This document shows, piece by piece, positions 376 through 50,913 of a stretch of DNA of 64,000 nucleotides. Below the pieces are notes generated by a model, which was given only the letters and a program-made list of their open reading frames with translations, made no database searches and had not been told where the DNA came from. This DNA is from an uncultured Chlorobiota bacterium (lineage in GTDB: Bacteria; Bacteroidota; Bacteroidia; Bacteroidales; JAADGE01). Made by a program: the position numbers and the translations under genes. The stretch lies in the NCBI GenBank assembly GCA_947311445.1, contig CAMZKV010000042.1:2982-66981 (forward strand), read 5' to 3'. Positions within the stretch are counted from its first letter, which is position 1. Each line of letters opens with the position of its first letter.

Positions 376-903
376 CTAAAACTCAAATGAATCAAAAAAA
401 GTTTTAATCTTTCTATTTCTTTCTTTTTCATTGCTTATAACAATTAATTGAAACTGTACTTTATTAATTATAAAAACACGATAAAAAACATACATATTTT
501 TATCATCAAGAGATAAAAAAGCTTCTGTTCCTTTTATTTTATTGTATTTTATCTTTTTACTATTTTGAATTGTTCCTTTTATTCCTGTTTCAAAAGATTG
601 CAAAGAAGCATTCATATATGTCTCATTATCAGAAGATACAACAGGGTTTGAATGTTCAGTATATTTTAACATGTAAACGTCAGTTCCCAACAAAGCTGTA
701 TATAATTCTGTTTTAAGACCTTTATTATCGGAACTTTCTTCCATTTTATATTCAGCAGGAAAATTTATTGAGAAACTTGGCTTTTCTTTTGTTAATTTAA
801 AACTTGTTTTCTTTGTGCTTACATTAGTGTTTTGAGCACTTAAACTAAAACTAAGAAGTATGGAAACTAGTAATATCAAATTTATTTTTAATTGTTTTTT
901 CAT
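376..903 (-). CDS. hypothetical secreted protein
   Basis: 175-aa ORF with an N-terminal signal peptide (MKKQLKINLILLVSILLSFSLSAQ). No family recognised. The start codon is embedded in the end of a repeat module (901-1015). Confidence 0.55.
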   Translation of the reverse strand: MKKQLKINLILLVSILLSFSLSAQNTNVSTKKTSFKLTKEKPSFSINFPAEYKMEESSDNKGLKTELYTALLGTDVYMLKYTEHSNPVVSSDNETYMNASLQSFETGIKGTIQNSKKIKYNKIKGTEAFLSLDDKNMYVFYRVFIINKVQFQLIVISNEKERNRKIKTFFDSFEF

Positions 904-1015
904 CTGTCTAAAAAAAAGTTAAAAGTTTGAAAGTATAAAGTTAATTTGTTTTTATTAAAAATTTCTAAGAAAATATCATTTTATTAATTCCCTTCCATTG
1001 TGTGTCAAAATTTTT
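901..1015 (-). repeat. start-codon-abutting repeat, S-type module
   Basis: The reverse complement reads AAATTTTGACACACAATGG...TTTTTAATAAAAACAAATTAACTTTATACTTTCAAACTTTTAACTTTTTTTTAGACAGATG and ends on the ATG of the 376..903 gene. Confidence 0.65.
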
Positions 1016-1061: not shown

Positions 1062-2312
1062 CTATTCATAATATCCTAAAATAAACTTTCTTAGCATATC
1101 TAGCGATTTTGAACTTGCAAATCTCACATTCAGTAGTCTTCGTTTTCCAAAAGTATATTTCTTGGAAATTACTTTATTCTTTCCGGCAATAGCAATCCAA
1201 GTTGTTCCAACAGGTTTTTCCATTGTTCCACCACCAGGTCCGGCAATTCCGGATATTGCAATAGAATAGTCAGTATTAAAAATATCTCTTTGTCCTTTTG
1301 CCATAGCTTCAACAACTTCTTTGCTTACAGCTCCGTATTTCTCAAGAATATTTTGTGAAACTTTAAGCTGTTTATTTTTAATTTCGTTTGAATATGCTAC
1401 AACTCCTCCTTTAAAATAGTTAGAACTTCCGGGAACAGATGCTATTAATCTTGAAACATTTCCTGCTGTACAACTTTCTGATATTGAAAGTGTTGCCTCG
1501 TTTTCAATTAATAATTCCCCTATTATGTTCTCTAAAAACTTATCTCCATATCCGAAAATATATTTTCCAATAATACTTTTTAATTTTTCAATCTCAAAAT
1601 TAATAATTTCTTCTGCTTTTTTCTTTTGCTCACAAATCATGCTCAATCTCAATCGTATTCTTTCAGGAGAAGGAAGATATGCTAATTTTATTTTATCATT
1701 AAGGTTTTGTTCCCAATCCGACAACTTTTCTGCTAAAAATGCTTCGGGAATACCATAAGTCAAAACTGTTTTATGAATTATATTTGGCAATTTCATATCT
1801 TTTTTAAGCTCAGGAATTACTTTTCTCTCAACTAATTCTTTCATTTCAAAAGGAACAGCAGGCAAAGAAACAATTATAGTTTCATCTTTTTCAAACCACA
1901 TTCCGGGTGCTGTACCATTTTTATTTCTTAAAATTTTACAATTTATGGGAACTTCTGCTTGTTTTCTGTTTCTTTCGTTATTTAGTTTAAAACCTTTTGA
2001 TTGGATAAAGTTTGTAACATCTTCTAAAACTTCTTTATTTTCTTTAAGCTCAGAATTAAAATATTCTGCAAGAACTTGTTTTGTAATATCATCCTCTGTT
2101 GGGCCTAATCCTCCGGTTATTACTATTAAGTTAACTTCATTAATTATTGAATCTAAAACACTAATTATCTGTTCTTTATCATCGCCAACGGTTATTATTC
2201 TTCGAATTTCAAAGCCAATATTATTTATTTGCTCTGCAATCCACTGAGAATTTGTATCAGTTATTTGACCTATTAAAATTTCATCTCCAATAGTTATTAT
2301 ATCTGCTTTCAT
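1062..2312 (-). CDS. cinA: CinA family protein (competence/damage-inducible; nicotinamide-nucleotide amidohydrolase-type C-terminal domain)
   Basis: 416-aa ORF. N-terminal MoCF-like motif MKADIITIGDEILIGQITDTNS and C-terminal PncC-like region (ISESCTAGN...ISGIAGPGGG). Confidence 0.9.
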   Translation of the reverse strand: MKADIITIGDEILIGQITDTNSQWIAEQINNIGFEIRRIITVGDDKEQIISVLDSIINEVNLIVITGGLGPTEDDITKQVLAEYFNSELKENKEVLEDVTNFIQSKGFKLNNERNRKQAEVPINCKILRNKNGTAPGMWFEKDETIIVSLPAVPFEMKELVERKVIPELKKDMKLPNIIHKTVLTYGIPEAFLAEKLSDWEQNLNDKIKLAYLPSPERIRLRLSMICEQKKKAEEIINFEIEKLKSIIGKYIFGYGDKFLENIIGELLIENEATLSISESCTAGNVSRLIASVPGSSNYFKGGVVAYSNEIKNKQLKVSQNILEKYGAVSKEVVEAMAKGQRDIFNTDYSIAISGIAGPGGGTMEKPVGTTWIAIAGKNKVISKKYTFGKRRLLNVRFASSKSLDMLRKFILGYYE

Positions 2313-2412
2313 GAGTCTAAAAAAGTTTAAAAGTATAAAGAGTTAATTTGTATTTATTAAAGATGCACGGTAAAAACTATTTTTTAGACATGCATTGAAT
2401 GTCAAAATCTTT
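2310..2412 (-). repeat. start-codon-abutting repeat, S-type module
   Basis: The reverse complement reads GATTTTGACATTCAATGCATGTCTAAAAAATAGTTTTTACCGTGCATCTTTAATAAATACAAATTAACTC...ACTTTTTTAGACTCATG and ends on the cinA ATG. Within it, 2341-2375 matches 37245-37279 at 34 of 35 nt. Confidence 0.75.
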
Positions 2413-2533
2413 GCTATAAGAGTTTCATATATGTTGTGATTCATTTTTATAAAAAACCGAACAAAATTGCCCGGTTTTTTTATAATCATATGTTTTTTTT
2501 TATAATAATTGTATATTATTCTAATTAAAAATT

Positions 2534-7321: not shown

Positions 7322-8185
7322 ATGAGACAATTAAAAATATCCAAATCCATAACCAACCGAGATAGTGCTTCATTAGACAAATACTTACAAGATATTGGCA
7401 AGGTAGATTTAATCTCTGTTGAAAAAGAAGTAGAACTTGCCCAAAGAATTAGAAAGGGAGACCAAGATGCTCTAAGGCAACTTACTGAAGCAAATCTTAG
7501 GTTTGTAGTTTCTGTTGCAAAGCAATACCAACACCAAGGTTTAAGTTTACCTGATTTAATTAATGAAGGAAACTTAGGTTTAATGAAAGCTGCCAAGAAA
7601 TTTGACGAAACAAGAGGTTTTAAATTTATTTCTTATGCTGTATGGTGGATAAGACAATCTATTTTACAGGCTCTTGCAGAACAGTCTAGAATTGTAAGAC
7701 TTCCTCTAAATCAAGTTGGTTCTGTGAATAAAATATATCGTTTTTTTTCTGAGTTTCAGCAAAAGTATAACAGAGAACCTACAACACAAGAAATTTCTGA
7801 GGAATTAGACATTACTACTAAAAAGATATTTCAGGTTCTTAAAGCTGCAGGAAAACATATGTCTATGGATGCACCTCTTACAACAGATTCTGACAGTAAT
7901 AGCCTAATTGATATAATGGAAAACGAAGGGACTGATCCTTCTGACAATTATTTAATTAGAGAATCTTTGCTACAAGAAATTGAACGTGCTTTATCAACTT
8001 TACCTGAGAGAGAGGCTTTAATTATTAAACATTTTTTTGGTGTGAATGATAAGGAGTTGTCATTACGAGAGATTGGGGATAAACTTGGTCTTACCAGAGA
8101 ACGAGTAAGACAATTAAAAGAACGTGCTTTAAGAAAGCTTAGAAAAAACTCACGAAATAAACATTTAAAAACTTTTTTGGGTTAG
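7322..8185 (+). CDS. rpoD: RNA polymerase primary sigma factor (sigma-70 family, Bacteroidota short form)
   Basis: 287-aa ORF with regions 2-4: DLINEGNLGLMKAAKKFD, YAVWWIRQSI, and LGLTRERVRQLKERALRKLR. Confidence 0.92.
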   Translation: MRQLKISKSITNRDSASLDKYLQDIGKVDLISVEKEVELAQRIRKGDQDALRQLTEANLRFVVSVAKQYQHQGLSLPDLINEGNLGLMKAAKKFDETRGFKFISYAVWWIRQSILQALAEQSRIVRLPLNQVGSVNKIYRFFSEFQQKYNREPTTQEISEELDITTKKIFQVLKAAGKHMSMDAPLTTDSDSNSLIDIMENEGTDPSDNYLIRESLLQEIERALSTLPEREALIIKHFFGVNDKELSLREIGDKLGLTRERVRQLKERALRKLRKNSRNKHLKTFLG

Positions 8186-18772: not shown

Positions 18773-19333
18773 TCAGTTACTATCAGGGTTTGTTTTTACA
18801 AATTCTTCGATTTTTTTAACTGCGTGATGGTATGATGCTTTAAGACTCCCAATTGAAGTGTCTAATATTTCAGCCATATCTTTATATTTTTTTTCATCAA
18901 AATATTTCATATTAAACACAAGTCTTTGTTTTTCCGGCAAGTTTAAGATTGCTTTTTGCAGAATTAATTGTGCCTCATCTCCATTGAAATATTCGTCGCT
19001 TTGTAAATTATTACTTAAAAATTTCTCATAGGAATTAATGGATTCTTCTATTTTTTTCTTTTTTTTGTTTATAAAAGTTATTGATTCGTTTGTTGCAATT
19101 CTGTATATCCAAGTGTATATTTTAGATTTTCCTTTAAATTTTTCTAAATATTTCCAAACTTTAATAAATGTATTTTGTAAAACATCATCTGTATCATCAT
19201 GGAGCAATACAATCTTTCTAATATGCCAATATAGTTGTTCTTTGTATTCTTCAACAATGTTATTAAAAGCATTATCAAAATCTTTTTCTTTAATTAATTG
19301 ATTTATTTGGCTTTCTTTATTTGTTGAATTCAT
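18773..19333 (-). CDS. ECF-type RNA polymerase sigma-70 factor
   Basis: 186-aa ORF with sigma region 2 (DDVLQNTFIKVWKYLEKF...TWIYRIATNESI) and region 4 (LPEKQRLVFNMKYFDEKKYKDMAEILDTSIGSLKASYHHAVKKI). Confidence 0.9.
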   Translation of the reverse strand: MNSTNKESQINQLIKEKDFDNAFNNIVEEYKEQLYWHIRKIVLLHDDTDDVLQNTFIKVWKYLEKFKGKSKIYTWIYRIATNESITFINKKKKKIEESINSYEKFLSNNLQSDEYFNGDEAQLILQKAILNLPEKQRLVFNMKYFDEKKYKDMAEILDTSIGSLKASYHHAVKKIEEFVKTNPDSN

Positions 19334-27721: not shown

Positions 27722-28327
27722 TTATTGAATAGATTTTAATGTTTTAACAATTTCTCTAACAGGCATCCTACGAGTATAATCTTTGTTAAAATATCCGTTA
27801 ATAATTTTTTTGTCTGTCCCAATAATATATGTTGCTGGTACAGGTAATGCGTTATCAGAATTTTTACTTGATTTTTTTAAATTTATACCTCTAAGTTTAT
27901 AAAAGAAATGAGCAAATCCGGAAACATGCCAAGTTACTTTATAATTATCCATTATTTTATGCCCTTCATCATAAACAATACTAAAATTTGCATTTGTTTT
28001 TTTAATAGTTTCATCAATGTAATAACTACTTTCTGGTGTTATTGCAATTATTTTTGCTCCTAAATCAGTAATCATAGACAAGGAATCAGAAAGATCATTC
28101 ATGTATAAATTGCAATGCTTACACCATTCACCTCTATAAAAAATAAGTACAACCGGCTGTTTATTAAGGATTTGATATAAATCAATTTTTTTATTATAAT
28201 TATCTTTAACAGAAAAATTATGAACTTTTGTTCCATTTTCAAGTTTTTGTTGTGCATTTATTGATAACGAAAAAATAATAATTAAAAAAAATGCTGTAAA
28301 TTTAATAATTTTCATTGAATATCTCAT
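27722..28327 (-). CDS. thioredoxin-fold thiol-disulfide oxidoreductase / peroxiredoxin-like protein (secreted)
   Basis: 201-aa ORF. Signal peptide and redox motif YRGEWCKHCNLY (CxxC). An alternative start is MKIIKF at 28315. The 28327 ATG is the last triplet of a repeat module. Confidence 0.72.
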   Translation of the reverse strand: MRYSMKIIKFTAFFLIIIFSLSINAQQKLENGTKVHNFSVKDNYNKKIDLYQILNKQPVVLIFYRGEWCKHCNLYMNDLSDSLSMITDLGAKIIAITPESSYYIDETIKKTNANFSIVYDEGHKIMDNYKVTWHVSGFAHFFYKLRGINLKKSSKNSDNALPVPATYIIGTDKKIINGYFNKDYTRRMPVREIVKTLKSIQ

Positions 28328-28560
28328 GTGTCTGATGTTTGTTAATTAATTGGCAATAAACAAGTTACTAATGTTTCTATTGTTATTAATATTTGTGTTT
28401 CTCTGCATATAGGAACACTTGCTATGTTCTGCAAATAAAATGTAGCTTTGTTATGTCATTTCAATGAATGTCAAAATCTATGTCTTTAGTGCTTAGCTTT
28501 GCAGAGACTCTGGGTTCATGTGTCAAAAAAAAGTTAAAAATTATTTTGATTCAATTAAAA
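28325..28560 (-). repeat. start-codon-abutting repeat: L-type module (28325-28480) plus linker and S-type 3' fragment (28517-28560)
   Basis: The reverse complement reads ...TTTTTTTTGACACATG|AACCCAGAGTCTCTGCAAAGC...ATTTTGACATTCATTG...TTGCAGAACATAGCAAGTGTTCCTATATGC...CAGACACATG(gene). It is homologous along its length to 29001-29150 and 37032-37170. Confidence 0.75.
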
Positions 28561-28700
28561 GGACATGAAAGAATTTGGCATCTTTTTTAGTTAGTATTTA
28601 GTTCATTCGAGAGAAAATACTTGAATATCAAATTATTAAAAATGCTTACTATATTTCATTAATTTAAAACTATGCAGTTTTATTATTTGCCATAAAAAGG

Positions 28701-28757
28701 AATCATTGCCTGGCTTCTGAGGAACTCTAAAAACTCAGAAGCCATATGGCAATGATT
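28701..28757. other. long two-tier hairpin in ORF-free intergenic DNA (terminator-like in both directions; possible sRNA 3' end)
   Basis: Outer stem AATCATTGCC (28701-28710) / GGCAATGATT (28748-28757). Inner stem GGCTTCTGAG (28712-28721) / CTCAGAAGCC (28734-28743). 12-nt loop, T-rich tracts on both sides. Confidence 0.6.
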
Positions 28758-29000
28758 ATTTTGTTACTAATTTGTTAATTAATATAAATTCTAAAAAATA
28801 TTTATTAAAAATTAATAATGTCTTTGCAAATATAAAATGTTTTAAAACAATGTTGTGTAACTAATATCACATTTGATTGCAAAAAAAGTAAATATTTTTG
28901 ATTCTACAAAATTATATTTATATAAATTGCACTTTTTTTAATACAAAACATTATTTTCAAACAAATATTCTCTAATGAAATAATAACAAATAAGAGCAAA

Positions 29001-29150
29001 CATTTTGACACCCAAGTGCATACTTATAATCTAGCAGATTTATTTCTTGCACAACATAGCAAGTGTTCCTATGTGCTGAACAACAGAGCTGTTTTAAATA
29101 CAAAAAGCAACTCGTTTAATATCAACTAATTAGACAATCTAAAACACATG
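29001..29150 (+). repeat. start-codon-abutting repeat, L-type module
   Basis: CATTTTGACACCCAAGTGCAT...TTGCACAACATAGCAAGTGTTCCTATGTGC...TTAGACAATCTAAAACACATG ends on the ATG of the 29148 gene. It is an inverted copy of 28325-28480. Confidence 0.75.
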
Positions 29151-30488
29151 AAAAACGGCTTCTTCGTAATTTTATTATCTCTAATATCAACTATTTTTTT
29201 TGCTCAAGAAAATGACTCTTTAAAGAAGAATAAAACTGGTTTTGGATTAGGTTTTGTTCCAATTTTTGCTTTTGATTCTGATGTTGGTTTAAAAACCGGC
29301 ATTGTTGCTAATATTTTTCATTATGGTGATGGTGAAAATTATCCAAAATATGAACATTCCTTACTTTTAAAATGGTACAGATCGACAAAAGGAAGTAGAT
29401 TAGCACAAGTTATTTATGATTCTGATAAAATTATTGAAAATGTCAGACTTACTTCTGAGTTTAGTTATATTACTGACCAAACACTTGGGTTTTATGGATT
29501 TAATGGAAGTAAATCATTTTACAATCATAATTATGAAATTCAATCAGAAAAAAATATTAATTATATTTCAAAAATTTATTATAAGCATCAAAGAAAAATG
29601 CTTCGATTTAAAACTGATTTTCAATCTCCATTCAAAAAAACTAAGTTTAAATGGTTAATTGGATTTTCGCATTATAATATTATGATTCAAAGTGTTGACA
29701 GGGATAAAATAAACAATCATAAATCAACTAAAGTTTTATTGCCTGACACAGCAACGTTATATGATAAATATGTTAAATGGGGAATTATAAAAAACTCTGA
29801 AAAGAACGGAGGAAAAATAAATTATCTAAAATCCGGAATAATTTACGACAGCAGAGATAATGAAAGTAATTGTAATTCAGGTATTTGGACAGAAGTCTTA
29901 CTTTTATATGCACCTTCATTTTTAGCAAACAAATCTAATTTCGGGAAACTATTATTAACTCATCGCCAATATTTCTCTTTAAGACTAAACAAACTTACTT
30001 TTGCATATAGATTAAGTTATCAAACAAAACTATGGGGAGAAATTCCTTATTATATGTTGCCTTTTTTCATTGATTCAAAAAAAACAGAAGATGGTTTAGG
30101 TGGTGCTAAAAACTTAAGAGGCATTTTAAGAAACAGAATAGTTAGTAACGGATTTGCAAATGGAACTACGGAATTAAGGTGGAAATTTTGGTCGTTAAAA
30201 TTTATAAAACAAGATTTTTATCTTTCATTAAATTGTTTTACTGATGTGGCTACTGTAACAGAAGAGTATAGGTTTAATACTGATTTAGTGAAATCTGACT
30301 TTGGATTCTCAGAAGAGTCTAATTTAAAAAGCATAAATTACTCTAACAATAAATTCCATTTTTCATATGGTGTTGGAGTTTACATAGTAATGAACAAAAA
30401 CTTTGTAATTTCAACTGATTATGGAAGAGCTGTTTCTTATCAAGATGGAAAATCAGGATTATATGTAGGTCTTAATTTTATATTTTAA
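29148..30488 (+). CDS. Omp85/BamA-family outer-membrane beta-barrel protein without recognisable POTRA domains
   Basis: 446-aa ORF. Signal peptide, barrel-like strands from residue about 30 (GFGLGFVPIFAFDSDVGLKTG), a loop-6-like GGAKNLRGI motif, and C-terminal YVGLNFIF. Confidence 0.6.
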   Translation: MKNGFFVILLSLISTIFFAQENDSLKKNKTGFGLGFVPIFAFDSDVGLKTGIVANIFHYGDGENYPKYEHSLLLKWYRSTKGSRLAQVIYDSDKIIENVRLTSEFSYITDQTLGFYGFNGSKSFYNHNYEIQSEKNINYISKIYYKHQRKMLRFKTDFQSPFKKTKFKWLIGFSHYNIMIQSVDRDKINNHKSTKVLLPDTATLYDKYVKWGIIKNSEKNGGKINYLKSGIIYDSRDNESNCNSGIWTEVLLLYAPSFLANKSNFGKLLLTHRQYFSLRLNKLTFAYRLSYQTKLWGEIPYYMLPFFIDSKKTEDGLGGAKNLRGILRNRIVSNGFANGTTELRWKFWSLKFIKQDFYLSLNCFTDVATVTEEYRFNTDLVKSDFGFSEESNLKSINYSNNKFHFSYGVGVYIVMNKNFVISTDYGRAVSYQDGKSGLYVGLNFIF

Positions 30489-30498
30489 ATAAAAATAG

Positions 30499-31128
30499 CT
30501 AAATAATTTCTACAATTCCTTTTTCTTGAGTAATTTGATTATTATTCTCAAGTTTTTTCAAGATTCTACTTACAACCTCTCTTGCTGTGCCCATTTCTAA
30601 TGCTATAATTTTATGAGTAATCTTTATTTTCTTTAATCCAGAAACTTTTGATTTTTCAAGAAGATATTCATAAATTCTTTTATCTAATTTTTCAAAAAGA
30701 ACATTGTTTAATGTTTCTATTAAGTCAGAATACCTTTCATCATAAAGCGAATAAAAAAGAGAATTAAATGAAGGATATTCTTTTATCCATTTTTTAACAA
30801 TATCTACTGGAAACATCATAATTACAGCATCTGTTCCCGTTGTTGCATACACCCTACTAGGAGAATTCTTTAATACTGCAGAAAGAGACATAATACAACT
30901 TTCATTTGGTTGTATGTAATATAAAAGAAATTCTTTATCTTCATATTGGCTATAGACTTTCACAACTCCACTAATTACAATAGGGAGCATTTTTAAATAT
31001 TGCCCATGCCGAATAACTTCCATCCCTTTTGGAACTTCTTTTGTTACACCATTTGACAACATATCTTTTACCAGATTTTTCTCAAAACTTGGAAACTTAT
31101 TCTTTAAAAAACGAAAATCAATATCCAT
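30499..31128 (-). CDS. Crp/Fnr family transcriptional regulator
   Basis: 209-aa ORF. N-terminal cNMP-binding-like beta-roll and C-terminal HTH (IALEMGTAREVVSRILKKLE). Confidence 0.85.
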   Translation of the reverse strand: MDIDFRFLKNKFPSFEKNLVKDMLSNGVTKEVPKGMEVIRHGQYLKMLPIVISGVVKVYSQYEDKEFLLYYIQPNESCIMSLSAVLKNSPSRVYATTGTDAVIMMFPVDIVKKWIKEYPSFNSLFYSLYDERYSDLIETLNNVLFEKLDKRIYEYLLEKSKVSGLKKIKITHKIIALEMGTAREVVSRILKKLENNNQITQEKGIVEII

Positions 31129-31139
31129 ACTCTTTTTTA

Positions 31140-33290
31140 TTAATTTAAAATAATAACTTTTTTTACTATATCTTTAATACTAACGAAATAAATTCCACTC
31201 GGCAACCCTTCAATATTAATTTTTTCAATATTTAGTTTACTATTTAATTGCTTATTCATTATTATTTTACCTTGTATATTTTTCAATTCTAAATTGATTT
31301 TATCCATGTTAATAAAACTATATGAAATAATAAGTGTTTTTTTAGTAGGATTTAGCAAAATTTTAAAATCTCCCTTGTTTTTACCTAAATCGTATATTCC
31401 TAATGGAGGATATGAATTATTTAACTCTGCAGGAATTCCCCATTTCATAAGAATACCACCTTCATCCCAACTAGAACCTTTTTCTTCATAAAGATATCCA
31501 TAAACTTTCAAAGTCAAATCAGTTTGATAAGTATCATCAGCAGTATAATCAAAAACAAAATCATGGATTGGTTCAATTACGGAAGAATTTGCAGGTATTG
31601 GATTTCCATTATTGTATGCTGCTGTATCATAAACAAAACCATCTGCACCGCTCACATTATCCCATATATTTATAAAACTTTCTTCTGTGGTTAATTTACC
31701 ATAAACATCATATAATATTTCTTCACTTTTGTTATTAAACTTCAAAACAAATTCAATAGTTTCATTTGGTTCTAAGATTTGATTTCCATTTCCCTGGCTA
31801 TCTGGAATATCGTCATCATCCACAGTTAAAAAAGGATACTTCTTTAAAATCGGGATAATAAAATCTCCTAACCAAAAATCTCCGTCAATATCAGGAGATA
31901 TTCCATATAATGAAAATTTAAATTGCCCGTTTCCAGGAATATAATCTGGTAGTTCTATTTCAAAACTTTGATTAGACCAAACTGTTTCAGAAATTGGAAT
32001 ATCATTGAAAGAAACAGAGTTTGAAATAATAGAAACATCTTCATTTTCACTTAAAATATTAGCACTCAGAGAAGTAATATTAAAATTCATTAAATTTTCA
32101 ATACTAATTTTTAAATTAATCTTATTTCCTTCTGTTATAATATTTTCAGGATTATCCGAAGGAGGAGTTACACCTTCATAAAATTCAAACCGAGCTAAAT
32201 TTGCAGGTTTTTCCCTTATCTCAAAATTATTTATAGCAAATACAGCTGCATCTTTTAAACTTGTAACCTTTATTAAACACTCAGTTGAAACATTGTCTGG
32301 AACAATCCATAATACACTCTCAGTACAAGATGGGACACTATCTATTATACTTGTCCAGTTTGCACCATTATCACTTGAAAATTCAATCTTTGCATCTGCA
32401 ATAAAATCGCTTTCCCATTGCATCTTAATTTCTCTTCCTTTTTCAACTTTTTGTCCATTTGAAGGATATAAAATATTTAAACTAGGAATACTTTCAACTA
32501 TACTTATTGTTAAATCAATATCAGTCAGAGGTTTATCATTGCTATTTGTTTCAACTTCACTTATTTCATAAACAACATCCATTCCATCTATAACTCTTCC
32601 AAAAACTGAATGCACATCATTTAACCATTCTGTTGGAGCAACAGTTATAAAATACTGAGATCCATTAGTATTAGGTCCTGAATTTGCCATTGAAAGAATT
32701 CCTGGTATATTATGTCTTAAATCCGGATGAAATTCATCATAAAAAGAATAGCCAGGTCCTCCTGTTCCTGTTCCATACGGACATCCGTCTTGAATCATAA
32801 ACCCGGAAATTACTCTATGAAATATTAAATCAGTATAAAAACCTTTTTCTGCTAAATTAATAAAATTCTGAGTAGTAACAGGTGCTAAATCTCCTCTTAA
32901 TTCAACTCTTACTTGTCCCAAACTTGTATTCCACTCAGCAATAAATATGTTCTGATTTGTAATCTCAAAAACAGAATTACTTTCATCAAAAACACCACCT
33001 CCCAATTCGCTTACACGTATCAAACAATTAGTAGATTCAACATTGGGTGTTGTCCAAGAATAAAAATTTTCTGTGCAATTGTTAACAATTTCAACCCAAT
33101 TAGTTCCATTATCTACTGAATATTCTATTTTAAAATTTGAAATACCTGTACTTTCCCATATAATATTATGTGGAGACCATGTATCCTTTATAAATTTTTC
33201 ATTTCCATTAGGAAAAATCAAATTAATTGTTTGTGAATTAGAATATTTAATAAATACAATCAGGCTTAAAAAAATTATTATATTTTTCAT
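31140..33290 (-). CDS. secreted cyclophilin-type peptidyl-prolyl cis-trans isomerase with T9SS C-terminal sorting domain
   Basis: 716-aa ORF. Cyclophilin core (FHRVISGFMIQDGCPYGTGTGGPGYSFYDEF...SMANSGPNTNGSQYFIT), flanking duplicated about 90-aa domains, and a Por-type tail (GIYFVSIKDIVKKVIILN). Confidence 0.85.
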   Translation of the reverse strand: MKNIIIFLSLIVFIKYSNSQTINLIFPNGNEKFIKDTWSPHNIIWESTGISNFKIEYSVDNGTNWVEIVNNCTENFYSWTTPNVESTNCLIRVSELGGGVFDESNSVFEITNQNIFIAEWNTSLGQVRVELRGDLAPVTTQNFINLAEKGFYTDLIFHRVISGFMIQDGCPYGTGTGGPGYSFYDEFHPDLRHNIPGILSMANSGPNTNGSQYFITVAPTEWLNDVHSVFGRVIDGMDVVYEISEVETNSNDKPLTDIDLTISIVESIPSLNILYPSNGQKVEKGREIKMQWESDFIADAKIEFSSDNGANWTSIIDSVPSCTESVLWIVPDNVSTECLIKVTSLKDAAVFAINNFEIREKPANLARFEFYEGVTPPSDNPENIITEGNKINLKISIENLMNFNITSLSANILSENEDVSIISNSVSFNDIPISETVWSNQSFEIELPDYIPGNGQFKFSLYGISPDIDGDFWLGDFIIPILKKYPFLTVDDDDIPDSQGNGNQILEPNETIEFVLKFNNKSEEILYDVYGKLTTEESFINIWDNVSGADGFVYDTAAYNNGNPIPANSSVIEPIHDFVFDYTADDTYQTDLTLKVYGYLYEEKGSSWDEGGILMKWGIPAELNNSYPPLGIYDLGKNKGDFKILLNPTKKTLIISYSFINMDKINLELKNIQGKIIMNKQLNSKLNIEKINIEGLPSGIYFVSIKDIVKKVIILN

Positions 33291-33383
33291 GTGTCTATTT
33301 TTATTGATTTATTTTTTTTCGTTAGAGAAACTCATACATTAGGATTTGTTAATATCTTTTAAAAAGATAAAGATAAAACTTTT

Positions 33384-36902: not shown

Positions 36903-37004
36903 AAGATAAAAGTTAAGAATTGTTAAAAAATAAACATCAAAAGTAATAAATATTTGCTTTCAGTTTTTAATTTTGTCTATTTATTTAATAAAATATATGA
37001 AACA

Positions 37005-37300
37005 CCCTCAAAAAATACTCAGACACACATGAACAAAATTATAAACCTGCATATTGATTACTTGCAATAGAAAGCAAGTGTTCCTAAGTGCAAGACAACA
37101 CAATTATTTTAAGTCTCAATATTATTGAAACTTATTATATATCAATCAATTAAGCAAACACAGACTCATTAACCCGAAGGCTCAGCAAATATTAAACACC
37201 TATGAAAAAGACTTTTACACCCAAGTACATGACTAAAAATTAGATTTTACCGTGCATCTCTAATAAATACAAATTAACTTTTAACTTTTTTAAACACATG
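37005..37300 (+). repeat. three chained modules of the start-codon-abutting repeat family (5' fragment, L-type, S-type)
   Basis: ATGAAACACC...CAGACACACATG (to 37031) | AAC...CTTGCAATAGAAAGCAAGTGTTCCTAAGTGCAAG...CAGACTCATT (to 37170) | AACCCGAAGGCTCAGC...CTTTTACACCCAAGTACATGAC...TTTTACCGTGCATCTCTAATAAATACAAATTAACT...TAAACACATG (gene ATG at 37298). Confidence 0.75.
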
Positions 37301-44536: not shown

Positions 44537-44602
44537 AAAAAAATTATTATAAAAACAAACCTAACTTACTCAATATAAACTAATTAAATAATTCTTATAC
44601 AC

Positions 44603-45256
44603 ATGAACAATATTTATCTACAAAAGAATAAAATTCTTAATATTTTTCAAAAAAGTGATTTGAAACAATTCAAAATATCTGATTTTGAAAACGAATTAAA
44701 CTTTAAGATTATTTCATTTGAAAATGAAATCGAATTACTTCAAATAATTGATAAGATTTTCGTTGAACATAATTTAGAAGTTATTATAAAAATTAATAAT
44801 GTAAAATTACTTTCAGGAATTGCAGAAAGAATTGGGTTTCCAGAATATAATAAAGAACTAATCTCTACATTATATAAATTAAATAAAATAGGACTAGACA
44901 ACTTCAAAGAAGAACTTATGAGAATAGGCTTTTCAGAAGATTCTGTAAATTTAACAGAAACAATCCTAAATCTTAACGGAACATATAACAACCAAATGCA
45001 ATGTATTGAAAAATTTCTTGGTGAAACAGATTCAGGGATTGATGGAATTGTTGAAATTGAGAAACTTTTCTCTTTTCCTAAAATTAAGCAATTCAAAAAT
45101 GAAATTCAACTTGATATAACTTTATCTACTAACGAAAATAGTTTTTCTGGTACAATTTTTAAAATTGCACTTAAAGAAAACCAAAATAATATCTTATGCA
45201 AAGGTGGTACTAGTAAAGATTTTTTTAAAATATATTTTAAAACTAATGAAGTATAA
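44603..45256 (+). CDS. histidyl-tRNA synthetase-derived protein lacking catalytic motifs and the anticodon-binding domain
   Basis: 217-aa intact ORF. It aligns by eye with the middle of class II HisRS (IKINNVKLLSGIAERIGFPE, LYKLNKIGLDNFKEEL). The HisRS motifs RGLDYYTG and GGRYD are replaced by TNENSFSG and GGTSKD. Confidence 0.55.
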   Translation: MNNIYLQKNKILNIFQKSDLKQFKISDFENELNFKIISFENEIELLQIIDKIFVEHNLEVIIKINNVKLLSGIAERIGFPEYNKELISTLYKLNKIGLDNFKEELMRIGFSEDSVNLTETILNLNGTYNNQMQCIEKFLGETDSGIDGIVEIEKLFSFPKIKQFKNEIQLDITLSTNENSFSGTIFKIALKENQNNILCKGGTSKDFFKIYFKTNEV

Positions 45257-48060: not shown

Positions 48061-48371
48061 AACCATCAAAATAATACATTTTTTTCTATTTACCACTAAA
48101 TACCTTATATTAATCAAAACAACTTTTGGAACTACACATCATTTGTTTTTTTAGTTAACAATCTATTTGTTAGCTAAATAGAACAAAATTTTACTCAATA
48201 AATATAAAATTAATTCAAAGAAATTATCACTGAATATTATATATTTTATTAAAATTTTCATACTTTTATAATTTCTAAAAAAGACCTCTACTTTTCTTTA
48301 ATTTAAAAAAACATTTTTGCTTTTTATAACAACTGATATCTAAAACTAACAAATAACTATATTTTTAAGTT

Positions 48372-48525
48372 ATGAAACACCAAAGACAAAAGTTTCAGCA
48401 CACAAAGGAATGACTAAAATGTGTATTTCCTATGCATTTTTAATAAATGCAAATTGACTTTTAACTTCACACTTTCAAACTTTTAACTTTTAACTTTAAA
48501 ACTTTTAACTATTATTAGACACATG
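48372..48525 (+). repeat. start-codon-abutting repeat, S-type variant with CTTTTAAC micro-repeats
   Basis: ATGAAACACCAAAGAC...GTTTCAGCACACAAAGGAATGAC...TATGCATTTTTAATAAATGCAAATTGACTTTTAAC...(ACTTTTAAC repeated)...ATTAGACACATG ends on the ATG of the 48523 gene. Confidence 0.65.
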
Positions 48526-50913
48526 AAAAAAATAACTTTTTTATTTCTATTCCTGTTATCATTATCATCATTTATATATAGCCAATCAACAGGTTGTATC
48601 TATGGAGATTGTACAAACGGATATGGAAAATATGTATGGGATACAGGAGATGAGTACATTGGCGACTGGGTAAACGGACAACAAGAAGGTAATGGAACTT
48701 TAACTTATAAAGATGGAGGAAAATACACCGGAGAGTTTGTTAACGGACTTAGACATGGAATGGGAACATTTACATGGGCTTCGGGAGTAAAACACTCAGG
48801 ACAATGGATGAAAGGAAACCAACATGGCGAAGGTACATATATATATGCAGATGGGACTATTTCAACAGGAATTTGGGAAAACGGAAAATGGAAAGGAAAA
48901 ATTGGAGAAGTTACAGGTTGTATTTTTGGAGATTGCTCAAATGGTAAAGGAACATATATATGGAAAAATGGTGAGAAATATAACGGTGAATGGAAAAATA
49001 ATAAAAGAAACGGACAAGGCACAAATTATTTTGCAAACGGATTAAGATATGAAGGAGAATGGAAAGATGATTTAAGAAACGGATTTGGAATAAATTTCAA
49101 AGTTGACGGGACAATAGAAAAAGGTCTTTGGGATAATGACAGATATACAGGCTCGGGTTCAAACAGTTATGGATGCATTTCTGGCGACTGCTCAAATGGA
49201 TATGGAATATACACTTGGGAATCAGGAGAAAAATATGAAGGATATTGGAAATTTGATGCCTCTTTGAATTATGGAAAAAGACACGGATATGGTGTTAACT
49301 ATTTTTCTAATGGTGCTAAATATGATGGAAATTGGGTAGAAGGAAAAAAACAAGGCAAAGCTACATATACCTATCAACCAGAATCAATTTATAAATATTA
49401 CACAGGAGAATATGTTCAAGGAAATATGACAGGAGATGGAGTTTTTGAATATAAAGATGGGAAAAAATATGTAGGAGAATTTAAAGATAATTATTTCCAT
49501 GGACAAGGAACATTATATTATCCTAACGGGAAAATAGAATCTGGTATTTGGGAAAAAGATGTTTTGGTTAGAAAAAGCATCATCAAAGAAACAGGCTGTA
49601 TATCAGGAAATTGCGAAAATGGTTTTGGGACTTATGTTTGGAAAACAGGAGGTAAATATATTGGCGATTTTGAAAATGGAAAACGAGAAGGAAAAGGAAC
49701 TTATACATTTGAAAATGGAGATGTTTATAAAGGAGATTGGAAAAATGGAACTTATAATGGGCAAGGTACTTATAAATTTAAATCAGGATCAAAATATGTT
49801 GGAGAATGGAAAAACGGAAAATATAATGGTATAGGAACTATGTTCTATAAAAATGGAACATCAAAAACAGGGCTTTGGGAAAACGATGAATTTAAAGGAA
49901 AAGGTATAAAAAACTCATCTAAACCAGAAATCTCTTGGATAACACCTGCTTATGCAAATTCAACAAAAGAACAAAAATTTATAAAAGCAAAAGTTTGTAT
50001 AAAATCTGAAACCGATCTTCAAAATGTTCAATTTTATGTAAACGGAATAATAAAAGTTAACAATGCGACAAGAGGATACTCAATAGTTAATGCAAGTTGC
50101 GATTATACAATAGAAAGAGAAATATCTTTAGAAAACGAAAAAAACATTATTACTGTAAAAGTTACAAACAATGCCGGAACAGTAACTTCAGATACTAGAA
50201 CAGTTATTGTAAAACAAGAAATTGTTACAACTGATCAAAAAAGATTAGCATTAATTATTGGAAATGGAGACTACACTATGTCGCCTTTAAAAAATCCTCC
50301 TAATGATGCAAATGTAATTGCCAAAGAACTTAGAAATCTCGGTTTTGAAGTATTGGCTTTTACAAATTTATCTCAAAATGACATGAAAAAAAGAATTCGA
50401 GAATTCGGAAATAAACTAGCATCTCAAAAAGGAATTGGTCTTTTTTACTATGCCGGACATGGACTTCAACTAAACGGAGAAAACTATATTGTTCCTGTGA
50501 ATGCAGTAATTAACAAAGAACAAGATGTTGAACTTGAAGCAGTCAACCTAAAAAGAATACTTGGAGAAATGGACTATGCAGGAAACGATTTAAATATTGT
50601 TATTCTTGATGCTTGCAGAAACAACCCTTTTGCCAGAAGTTTTCGGTCTGGTGGAGGAAATGGTTATGCATCCGTTAATGCACCAAAAGGAACATATATT
50701 GCATTTGCTACTGCCCCCGGTTCTGTTGCATCAGACGGAACAGGAGATAATGGACTATATACCCAAGAACTAGTAAAAGCATTAAAAAAACCAGGACTAA
50801 AAATAGAAGATGTTTTTAAACAAGTAAGAAATAATGTTTATAATATTTCCGGCAAACAACAACTAACTTGGGAAAACTCATCTATTTTTGGAGACTTTTA
50901 TTTTAAAAGATAA
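48523..50913 (+). CDS. secreted MORN-repeat protein with C-terminal caspase-like (peptidase C14) domain
   Basis: 796-aa ORF. Signal peptide and about 20 MORN-type repeats (YxGEWxNGxxxGxG). These are punctuated four times by GC[IF]xG[DN]CxNGxGxY. An Ig-like linker follows, then a caspase fold with the His/Cys dyad (YYAGHGLQ, VILDACRNNPF). Confidence 0.85.
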   Translation: MKKITFLFLFLLSLSSFIYSQSTGCIYGDCTNGYGKYVWDTGDEYIGDWVNGQQEGNGTLTYKDGGKYTGEFVNGLRHGMGTFTWASGVKHSGQWMKGNQHGEGTYIYADGTISTGIWENGKWKGKIGEVTGCIFGDCSNGKGTYIWKNGEKYNGEWKNNKRNGQGTNYFANGLRYEGEWKDDLRNGFGINFKVDGTIEKGLWDNDRYTGSGSNSYGCISGDCSNGYGIYTWESGEKYEGYWKFDASLNYGKRHGYGVNYFSNGAKYDGNWVEGKKQGKATYTYQPESIYKYYTGEYVQGNMTGDGVFEYKDGKKYVGEFKDNYFHGQGTLYYPNGKIESGIWEKDVLVRKSIIKETGCISGNCENGFGTYVWKTGGKYIGDFENGKREGKGTYTFENGDVYKGDWKNGTYNGQGTYKFKSGSKYVGEWKNGKYNGIGTMFYKNGTSKTGLWENDEFKGKGIKNSSKPEISWITPAYANSTKEQKFIKAKVCIKSETDLQNVQFYVNGIIKVNNATRGYSIVNASCDYTIEREISLENEKNIITVKVTNNAGTVTSDTRTVIVKQEIVTTDQKRLALIIGNGDYTMSPLKNPPNDANVIAKELRNLGFEVLAFTNLSQNDMKKRIREFGNKLASQKGIGLFYYAGHGLQLNGENYIVPVNAVINKEQDVELEAVNLKRILGEMDYAGNDLNIVILDACRNNPFARSFRSGGGNGYASVNAPKGTYIAFATAPGSVASDGTGDNGLYTQELVKALKKPGLKIEDVFKQVRNNVYNISGKQQLTWENSSIFGDFYFKR

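Follow-up and report, generated by a model that had tools for sequence, protein, structure and literature searches.

Invertible promoters of the Bacteroides type, of which the Mpi-controlled capsule promoters are an example, and divergent promoters that share one central CRP/FNR-family site at class II-type spacing are both known. Putative mobile promoters are similar non-coding stretches of at least 100 to 150 nt that lie upstream of non-homologous genes within one genome, and they have been proposed to spread via mobile or non-autonomous elements or by recombination (Matus-Garcia, Nijveen & van Passel 2012, PMC3488235). The Correia repeat-enclosed elements of Neisseria and the ERIC, RUP and BOX repeats are non-coding, multi-copy, intergenic sequences of 100 to 200 nt; such elements carry terminal inverted repeats, show TA or short duplications of the target, occur in either orientation and at a variable distance from genes, are often co-transcribed with the downstream gene, can supply promoters, and can form RNA hairpins that affect the transcript (PMC3184786, PMC10969869). 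Here we analyzed the intergenic region between two divergent genes, encoding an AhpC-like thiol oxidoreductase and an Omp85-family outer membrane protein, in a stretch of 64,000 nt from an uncultured Chlorobiota bacterium (GCA_947311445.1, contig CAMZKV010000042.1, positions 2,982 to 66,981; hereafter the window). This region carries a large inverted repeat, in which an original prediction had seen a candidate promoter switch. Our analysis indicates that the two arms of the repeat are most probably modules of a lineage-specific family of promoter/leader cassettes propagated at start codons, and that the DNA between them is an ancestral Crp-type control region.

The module family is closest to the families of putative mobile promoters and to promoter-bearing small repeats such as the Correia elements. 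As with the former, homologous non-coding DNA of at least 100 to 150 nt stands directly upstream of non-homologous coding sequences in one genome. However, the 3′ boundary of the module is fixed on the start codon, its left junction follows an orphan ATG, and the family includes tandem arrays, a near-invariant 21-mer and a core-less type, whereas putative mobile promoters are defined by similarity alone. With the Correia-type repeats the modules have in common that they are short, non-coding, intergenic and multi-copy; unlike them, they are devoid of terminal inverted repeats, keep to a single orientation and abut the ATG. An AT-rich lineage of the Bacteroidota/Chlorobi group has many unrelated genes with a shared cassette that sits with nucleotide precision on the start codon, and a divergence of only about 5% between genomes is enough for the family to turn over. 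Should the modules prove mobile or regulatory, they would offer a clear natural case of how promoters or leaders propagate and could be a candidate portable expression element for Bacteroidota. The locus also carries a caution: an inverton-like repeat between divergent genes can be two gene-oriented upstream repeats.

The inverted repeat and the module family of its arms

The two genes (coordinates of all features are given in Table 1) are separated by a gap of 820 nt, and the AhpC-like gene heads a row of co-directional genes (pyridoxal phosphate decarboxylase, TseH-like, DUF6695). The intergenic region begins with CATGTGTC and ends with AACACATG; its coordinates, the flanking open reading frames (ORFs) and the start codons at both of its ends are as the original prediction had described them. 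The core inverted repeat is real as well. Its arms are 39 nt long, 87% complementary and 612 nt apart, and the perfect 20-mer ATAGGAACACTTGCTATGTT occurs exactly twice in the 64 kb with three mismatches allowed, where 0.01 occurrences are expected. The prediction had also claimed longer, diverged arms around the core. A global alignment of the two upstream regions, each oriented by its gene, scored 169, versus 86 ± 8 for shuffles, and from this excess we conclude that arms of about 150 to 170 nt are truly homologous. Both arms contain ATTTTGACA, collinearly spaced. Only two ORFs in the gap reach 40 aa, 28468-28590 (plus strand, 40 aa) and 28972-29103 (minus strand, 43 aa, TTG start), and both overlap the repeat modules. 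The hairpin reported for the region is present (outer stem 28701-28710/28748-28757, inner stem 28712-28721/28734-28743), as are both TAnnTTTG matches (28443-28450 and 28893-28900).

We scanned one genome per GTDB species with the query AACAWAGCAAGTGTTCCTAT, a 20-mer with one degenerate position. The scan returned 10 loci. Of these, 8 are spread, one each, over 8 contigs of a single genome, that of the uncultured Chlorobi bacterium RB_MAG_00012 (GCA_947311255.1), and the remaining 2 are chance matches with no flanking similarity. This metagenome-assembled genome (MAG) and the window genome are sisters; positions 22.7 to 38.7 kb of the window are syntenic, at about 95% DNA identity, with contig CAMZKL010000043 of the MAG. 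Outside these two genomes the module family was found neither among the GTDB representatives nor in a JGI metagenome scan, in which a 19-mer core gave 4 matches, all of them by chance and with no module homology. A profile hidden Markov model made from 10 copies recovered further diverged, partial and tandem copies, with module scores of 46 to 147 bits; the window and the sister MAG together yielded at least 16 copies, full or partial, in about 170 kb of sequence. Genome-wide occurrence of the 30-mer at random positions had been named as an outcome that would undo the argument for selection on the core. The element does occur genome-wide, but its positions are anything but random, the copies being strictly tied to gene starts.

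When all copies are aligned, the 20-mer sits within a module of about 171 nt, or 193 nt with an optional 22-nt extension at the 5′ end. The module begins with AAACAC..ACAAAGATTTTGACAC..CAAG.GCATGA.TATAA.., continues with a middle that includes the core (GCATACA.ATTACTTGCAGAACAAAGCAAGTGTTCCTATGTGCAGA.CAACA) and is followed by an A/T-rich stretch, and ends with ..GCAACTTATT.AATAT.AATTAATTAGAAAA.TTTAGACACATG. Its 5′ block, AAACAC..GATTTTGACAC-N13/14-TATAA, resembles a promoter. The near-invariant 21-nt core, AAAGCAAGTGTTCCTATGTGC, is the 3′ half of a possible two-tier stem-loop and is flanked by the direct repeat TGCAGARCAAARCA, and the distance between core and ATG is fixed. The tail of the module is A/U-rich and apparently unstructured and ends with TTTAGACAC-ATG-AAA. 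A core-less variant, type B, has the 5′ block and the 3′ end in common with this module; the core segment is missing from it, and much of the middle is different.

Every copy lies on the coding strand of its downstream gene. Most copies end with (A)GACACATG, and the ATG in this ending either opens the downstream ORF or abuts the next tandem module. The ORFs opened in this way are 132 to more than 460 aa long (in L007, 19 aa to the end of the locus). The exceptions are L004, which ends on a GTG start, and L010b, in which the ATG is mutated and the gene starts about 60 nt further on. By Pfam, the downstream genes are unrelated: they encode AhpC-like, Omp85, CinA, glycosyltransferase and MORN/caspase proteins, the MORN/caspase gene (48523-50913) being judged by the precomputed Pfam domains of its homologues. 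Others look like genes for PntA/AlaDH, IspG, OmpH, a flavin adenine dinucleotide (FAD) oxidoreductase, a lipoprotein and a membrane protein, as far as their N-terminal sequences tell. The start context (A)GAC.CATG is found at about 8 of the 56 window genes, and WGACWCATGA occurs only at module ends and gene starts across all loci examined. An orphan TAATTTTG box and an orphan ATG stand just upstream of the row of modules at 37000.

A recurrent 22-nt linker, AAYCC..AGGCTC.GCAAAGCT, lies between an upstream ...CATG and the AAACAC start of a module and defines the long form of about 193 nt. It was seen at window positions 28496-28517 and 37168-37193 and in L005, L001 and L011.

Orientation of the segment between the arms

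Why, then, does the locus look like a switch? The original prediction had proposed that a recombinase encoded elsewhere flips the segment 28435-29046 between the cores and thereby swaps the promoter supply to the flanking genes. The anatomy would suit a screen for invertons: a 39-nt repeat of 87% with a perfect 20-mer encloses 612 bp with TAnnTTTG boxes between divergent genes. In this the region is like the Bacteroides-type invertible promoters, in which an inverted-repeat pair surrounds a TAnnTTTG segment between genes, but the likeness holds for the window genome only. In the sister genome the left core is kept with 2 changes, and a 29-bp deletion in the right module removes AGCAAGTGTTCCTATGTGCTGAACAACAG. 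No core inverted repeat was detected there, and the repeat is thus not conserved as a recombination site. The intergenic regions of the two genomes are collinear despite the deleted right core.

Related loci point the same way. We compared the window with the sister MAG locus (L001) and with three orthologous loci at 56 to 68% protein identity (L002, L003 and L019), and in all five the interior is oriented alike with respect to the Omp85 gene; the second orientation that a switch would be expected to leave among related genomes was not encountered in them. The arms belong to a dispersed, gene-co-oriented family, which fully explains the inverted repeat. Because the modules point at their downstream gene and the two genes are divergent, the repeat arises as a by-product, and no inversion is needed. 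Other family members are unpaired or, in L011, paired in direct orientation. Moreover, the interior appears to be a bidirectional promoter already (see below), and flipping it would gain little. We also confirmed that the window contains no recombinase, as no recombinase or transposase Pfam domain is present in its 56 ORFs of at least 90 aa, with gene 48523-50913 covered through the domains of its homologues. The locus therefore differs from the Bacteroides-type systems in an unconserved repeat, a single orientation, dispersed gene-oriented arms and the lack of a recombinase in the window, and we regard a promoter-toggling inversion as very improbable.

A single foldback MITE (miniature inverted-repeat transposable element), inserted between the genes with 39-bp terminal inverted repeats (28396-29085), had been offered as an alternative. 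Inverted repeats that look terminal and the lack of an ORF would agree with such an element. However, the arms extend into homology of about 170 nt that reaches outward to the start codons, and the other family members are single and unpaired. In addition, L002, L019 and L003, where the module was not found, conserve the Crp-like site and the two −7 boxes upstream of the Omp85 gene, and L019 conserves the hairpin there as well. The foldback element fails because the interior is ancestral, and its probability is close to negligible.

The TAnnTTTG box TAGCTTTG at 28443 was considered as a promoter and rejected. The left module carries it on the antisense strand, and neither L001 nor the other copies conserve it, and for these reasons we treat it as incidental.

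The interior control region

The DNA between the modules is the ancestral, fixed-orientation control region of the locus; its ancestry follows from its conservation in relatives in which the module was not found. Compared with the sister genome, the interior of the window shows 94% identity over its whole length, with almost no differences between about 28700 and 28985. It is more conserved than 4-fold degenerate sites, at which the two genomes have diverged by 13.9%.

On the minus strand, TGTGAYATTWGTTACA, a spacer of 21 nt and TATATTTG (TATTTTTG in L003) follow one another in all five loci. Read on the plus strand, the window, L001, L002 and L019 have a TAnnTTTG box 21 nt after the palindrome. 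The palindrome thus lies exactly 21 nt from each of two divergent −7 boxes, and in the window and L001 to L003 the Omp85 gene has a Crp-family regulator gene as its immediate downstream neighbor. A palindromic site at a fixed spacing in five loci, together with the regulator, is what would be expected of CRP/FNR-dependent promoters, and one predicted Crp/Fnr site looks as if it serves two divergent promoters. The 16-bp palindrome TGTAAC-N4-RTCACA, 21 nt from both outward −7 boxes, is like the CRP/FNR divergent promoters with class II-type spacing; different from these, the promoters here are of the Bacteroidota −7/−33 type and not of the sigma-70 −10/−35 type, and binding is predicted from sequence. 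We hypothesize that the rightward box serves the Omp85 gene and that the leftward box drives a short transcript, which would stop at an intrinsic terminator. The interior would then be a compact model in which one Crp/Fnr site is combined with two divergent −7-type promoters, one of them driving a short terminated transcript.

The strand on which the hairpin acts can be read from its changes in the relatives. The sister genome has 4 substitutions in the hairpin, which break pairs on the plus strand and give G·U wobbles on the minus strand. In L019, compensatory changes convert CUUCUGAG/CUCAGAAG to UUUCGGU/AUCGAAA, and on the minus strand the stem is followed by a U-run in the window, the sister genome and L019 alike. 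Wobbles, compensatory changes and U-run together indicate that the hairpin acts on the minus strand. The leftward transcript could be a candidate small RNA (sRNA) or an attenuator ahead of the AhpC operon; it has no match in Rfam.

In L003 (2216-4766) the gap between the AhpC and Omp85 genes holds genes for a cysteine dioxygenase (CDO_I), YceI and a tRNA_anti-like protein. The Crp-like site of this locus lies between divergent units, and its leftward arm runs into yceI-cdo-ahpC. From this arrangement, the window lineage appears to have lost those genes.

The window encodes a sigma-70 family protein of 287 aa (7322-8185, plus strand) with regions 1.2, 2, 3 and 4 and without region 1.1, which we take to be the short primary-sigma type typical of Bacteroidota and which would fit TAnnTTTG promoters. 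A sigma factor of the extracytoplasmic function (ECF) type is encoded at 18773-19333 (minus strand).

Conservation of the core and drift of the module

Between the window and the sister genome, orthologous modules are 78 to 81% identical in aligned columns, with indels, and identity falls to 70% in the 3′ part of the left module, versus 94 to 96% for the flanking coding sequence (with the divergence at 4-fold degenerate sites given above). Because the orthologous modules are less similar than the coding sequence, most of the module evolves at or above the neutral rate. The core stands out from this drift. Columns 32 to 54 of our alignment A2 (AAAGCAAGTGTTCCTATGTGC) are identical in 13 to 14 of the 14 paralogues, and the mean column identity is 79%. 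The uneven conservation noted in the original prediction is thus real, with a core of 21 nt that is almost invariant between drifting flanks, and selection on the core, or its homogenization, is a sound inference.

Could the core alone be the meaningful part of the module? It might be the signal of a regulon, recognized by one trans factor (a regulator, an alternative sigma factor, an RNA-binding protein or an sRNA), while the rest hitch-hikes. A near-invariant core in a module that otherwise evolves at roughly the neutral rate speaks for this, and so do the fixed distance between core and ATG and the direct repeat TGCAGARCAAARCA around the core. But the homology of about 170 nt includes neutrally evolving positions, which implies common descent of whole modules and not convergence; the downstream genes share no function; type-B modules keep the rest without the core; and the core is non-palindromic and matches no sigma-54 or ECF pattern by eye. 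A regulon signal as the explanation of the modules is therefore rather unlikely, and it is compatible with a propagated cassette, as the function of the core.

A further lead concerning the core is speculative, namely that it might pair with the 3′ tail of 16S rRNA. The core stretch ACAAAGCAAGUGUUCC (ACAUAGCAAGUGUUCC in the two window copies, 29050-29065 and 28416-28431) was set against the Bacteroidota-type tail, GGAACACCUCCUUUCU. The core consensus matches the complement of this tail at 13 of 16 positions, GUGUUCC being a contiguous part of the match. Neither the window nor the related loci examined contain an rRNA gene.

Junctions and turnover of the modules

Most left junctions read ...ATG/AAACAC (the slash marks the junction), and those of tandem copies read GACACATG/AAACAC. 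The tandem copies have a 14-nt terminal direct repeat and a spacing of 171 nt. ATG or ATGAAA stands at both junctions in most copies, a pattern that is indistinguishable from a selected start-codon context. At 4 independent sites a canonical TAnnTTTG box is located 13 to 45 nt upstream of the left junction (window 37000 and its L001 orthologue, L011 6504, L010 4370 and window 1015), and a box with a short leader and an ATG upstream of the junction looks like an orphaned native promoter. The orphan ATG opens an upstream open reading frame (uORF) of 3 to 13 codons (MKH..), for example at window 36997-37035 and in L008, L006 and L010, and in several copies this uORF stops at a TGA inside the conserved TTTTGACAC block.

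One site differs in its module content between the two genomes. Upstream of the MORN/caspase gene, the window (48230-48525) has an orphan leader and ATG followed by a type-B module of 150 nt, and the sister MAG (L020 2760-3003) has only the last 78 nt of a type-A module. In outgroups, about 35 nt end with AAGACACATG (L021) or TTTACACACATG (L022). It follows from the difference at the caspase site that the module content turns over within about 5% genome divergence. The three other sites shared by the window and the sister genome are occupied in both.

We propose that the module is a propagated expression cassette, providing a promoter and/or a long 5′ leader. The cassette would be placed between the original ATG of a gene and its second codon, regenerating the ATG, either by some site-specific process or by recombination through the shared (GAC)ACATGAAA(CAC) ends. 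The copies would then decay roughly neutrally, save for the core and the promoter-like blocks. The core, about 20 to 45 nt downstream of the putative transcription start, would most plausibly be a sequence-specific recognition element in the 5′ leader or an operator, and a protein, an sRNA, an RNase or the ribosome are candidates for recognizing it. A more specific version describes a start-codon cassette as a kind of its own: non-coding and free of terminal inverted repeats, it would integrate at ATG^AAA, leave the gene's own promoter, leader and ATG stranded upstream as a short uORF and give dozens of unrelated genes a common promoter or leader, with the core as a site of recognition in trans. 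Taken with all of these properties, such a kind is quite unlikely.

The same junctions would be expected of an element without any host function. A non-autonomous element (MITE-like or IS200/IS605-PATE-like) that is purely selfish or neutral and has ATG^AAA as its target would explain the junctions ATG/AAACAC ... CACATG/AAA, the tandem arrays with their 14-nt terminal direct repeat, the approximately neutral divergence of orthologues and the polymorphic module content at the caspase gene. Nevertheless, terminal inverted repeats are absent from three representative modules, which have only terminal direct repeats, and the modules contain no subterminal hairpins. No transposase is encoded nearby in the window, there are no young, near-identical copies, and the invariant core in old copies argues for selection at the level of the host or for conversion. 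Moreover, the start context AGACACATGAAA is present in the more distant relative L021, with a near match in L022, in the absence of a full module. The start context is therefore older than full modules, and the 3′ end may be a selected initiation context and not the terminus of an element. A purely selfish origin is, on balance, unlikely.

A segment of 2.2 kb (31164-33357) is present in the window and missing from the sister MAG, and a 28-bp overlap flanks it in the alignment. It encodes a cyclophilin-type peptidyl-prolyl isomerase of 716 aa with a type IX secretion system (T9SS) sorting domain; its start context is ATAGACACATGAAA, with no full module. We considered whether this indel was module-mediated and rejected the idea.

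Structure and possible promoter activity of the modules

Besides the switch and the foldback element, the original prediction had mentioned a pair of structured 5′ leaders or a shared 5′-untranslated-region element. As to the leader, this came closest to the truth; the conserved fold did not hold up, since covariation is lacking. For 14 leaders, RNAalifold gave a consensus of −1.6 kcal/mol with 0 covarying pairs. Rfam gave no match in the region at E ≤ 10 and none for the region or the modules at gathering thresholds, in searches of the whole window and four module-bearing loci. A riboswitch or structured cis-regulatory leader was rejected, given that there is no covarying fold and no Rfam family and that the downstream genes are unrelated. 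Ideas of a self-splicing intron or a bridge-RNA-like element were dismissed as well, as there is no conserved structure and the boundaries misfit the rules for group I introns. Sigma-54 (GG-N10-GC), ECF (GGAAC/TGAAAC-N16-CGT), OxyR (ATAG-N7-CTAT) and Fur-like patterns were compared with the core by eye, and none fits, either in spacing or in sequence.

A scan for sigma-70-type promoters and terminators was uninformative; it returned 8 promoter-like sites versus 9.7 expected and missed the long-loop hairpin. The TTTGACAC and TATAA blocks are conserved among modules, and the modules of cinA and AhpC each have a terminator directly upstream, with no canonical −7 box between. Blocks and terminators suggest that the module brings a promoter, but the match to the Bacteroidota consensus is poor, and the chances seem about even.

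Several observations weigh against a propagated promoter/leader cassette. The promoter consensus of Bacteroides and Flavobacterium is −33 TTTG/−7 TAnnTTTG. The TTGACA-N14-TATAA of the module mismatches this consensus, which is the one expected for the 287-aa sigma factor of the window. Given the mismatch, promoter activity is only putative, and the modules may be transcribed leaders only. A two-tier hairpin drawn by hand is 81% paired, with covariation not above that of shuffles (106/500). Single sequences can form the two-tier stem-loop at −9 to −19 kcal/mol, and in the two window copies the fold is weak. The Omp85 copy of the sister genome has lost the core, which is therefore dispensable at least there. 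No clean empty site with a target duplication was recovered in the loci compared; upstream of the Omp85 gene none was found, the N-termini and leaders of the 56 to 68% identical orthologues being too diverged to align. The paralogues are old, at about 20 to 30% divergence, and together with the missing empty site this leaves mobility to be inferred from the junctions and one polymorphism only. We know of no enzyme associated with the module family. Finally, a rare inversion between the 39-nt arms in the window genome would count against our interpretation, and we consider it a very slight possibility.

Feature coordinates

Table 1. Coordinates of the flanking genes, repeat arms, modules and control elements in the window.
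Feature	Coordinates	Strand	Basis or remark
AhpC/TSA-Redoxin family thiol oxidoreductase gene	27722..28327	-	ORF list and Pfam domains
Omp85-family outer membrane protein gene	29148..30488	+	ORF list and Pfam domains
Crp/Fnr-family regulator gene (cNMP-binding and HTH_Crp_2)	30499..31128	-	candidate binder of 28856-28871
Inverted repeat, left arm (the left module's conserved core)	28396..28434		repeat search
Inverted repeat, right arm (the right module's core)	29047..29085		repeat search
Type-A module upstream of the AhpC-like gene (left; about 171 nt), with its end on the ATG	28325..28495	-	nhmmer 116 bits, E 2e-34
Type-A module upstream of the Omp85-family gene (right), with its end on the ATG	28985..29150	+	nhmmer 131 bits, E 5e-39
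22-nt linker AACCCAGAGTCTCTGCAAAGCT (28496-28517), then TTTTGACACATG, remnant 3′ end of an older upstream tandem module	28496..28529	-	
Candidate short minus-strand transcript (about 130 nt) with intrinsic terminator end	28688..28820	-	hairpin 28701-28757, U-run 28693-28698
−7 box TATATTTG (Bacteroidota type) of the minus-strand transcript	28827..28834	-	conserved in L001, L002 and L019; TATTTTTG in L003
Crp/Fnr-like palindrome TGTAACTAATATCACA	28856..28871		conserved in L001, L002, L003 and L019
−7 box TATTTTTG, likely ancestral promoter of the Omp85-family gene	28893..28900	+	equivalent box at the same distance in L002 and L019
Type-B-like module ending on the ATG of gene 376-903	901..1015	-	
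Type-B module ending on the cinA ATG	2310..2428	-	terminator about 25 nt upstream
Type-A module 37000-37167, linker 37168-37193, core-less type-B module 37194-37300	37000..37300	+	ends on the glycosyltransferase ATG; profile match of the type-A module 37002-37167
3′ part of a module only, ending on the ATG of gene 44603-45256	44539..44605	+	
Type-B module ending on the ATG of the MORN/caspase gene	48375..48525	+	

In the sister MAG, a SAM-II riboswitch (65.6 bits) is located at L008 1834-1892 (plus strand), about 280 nt from a type-A module and divergent from it.

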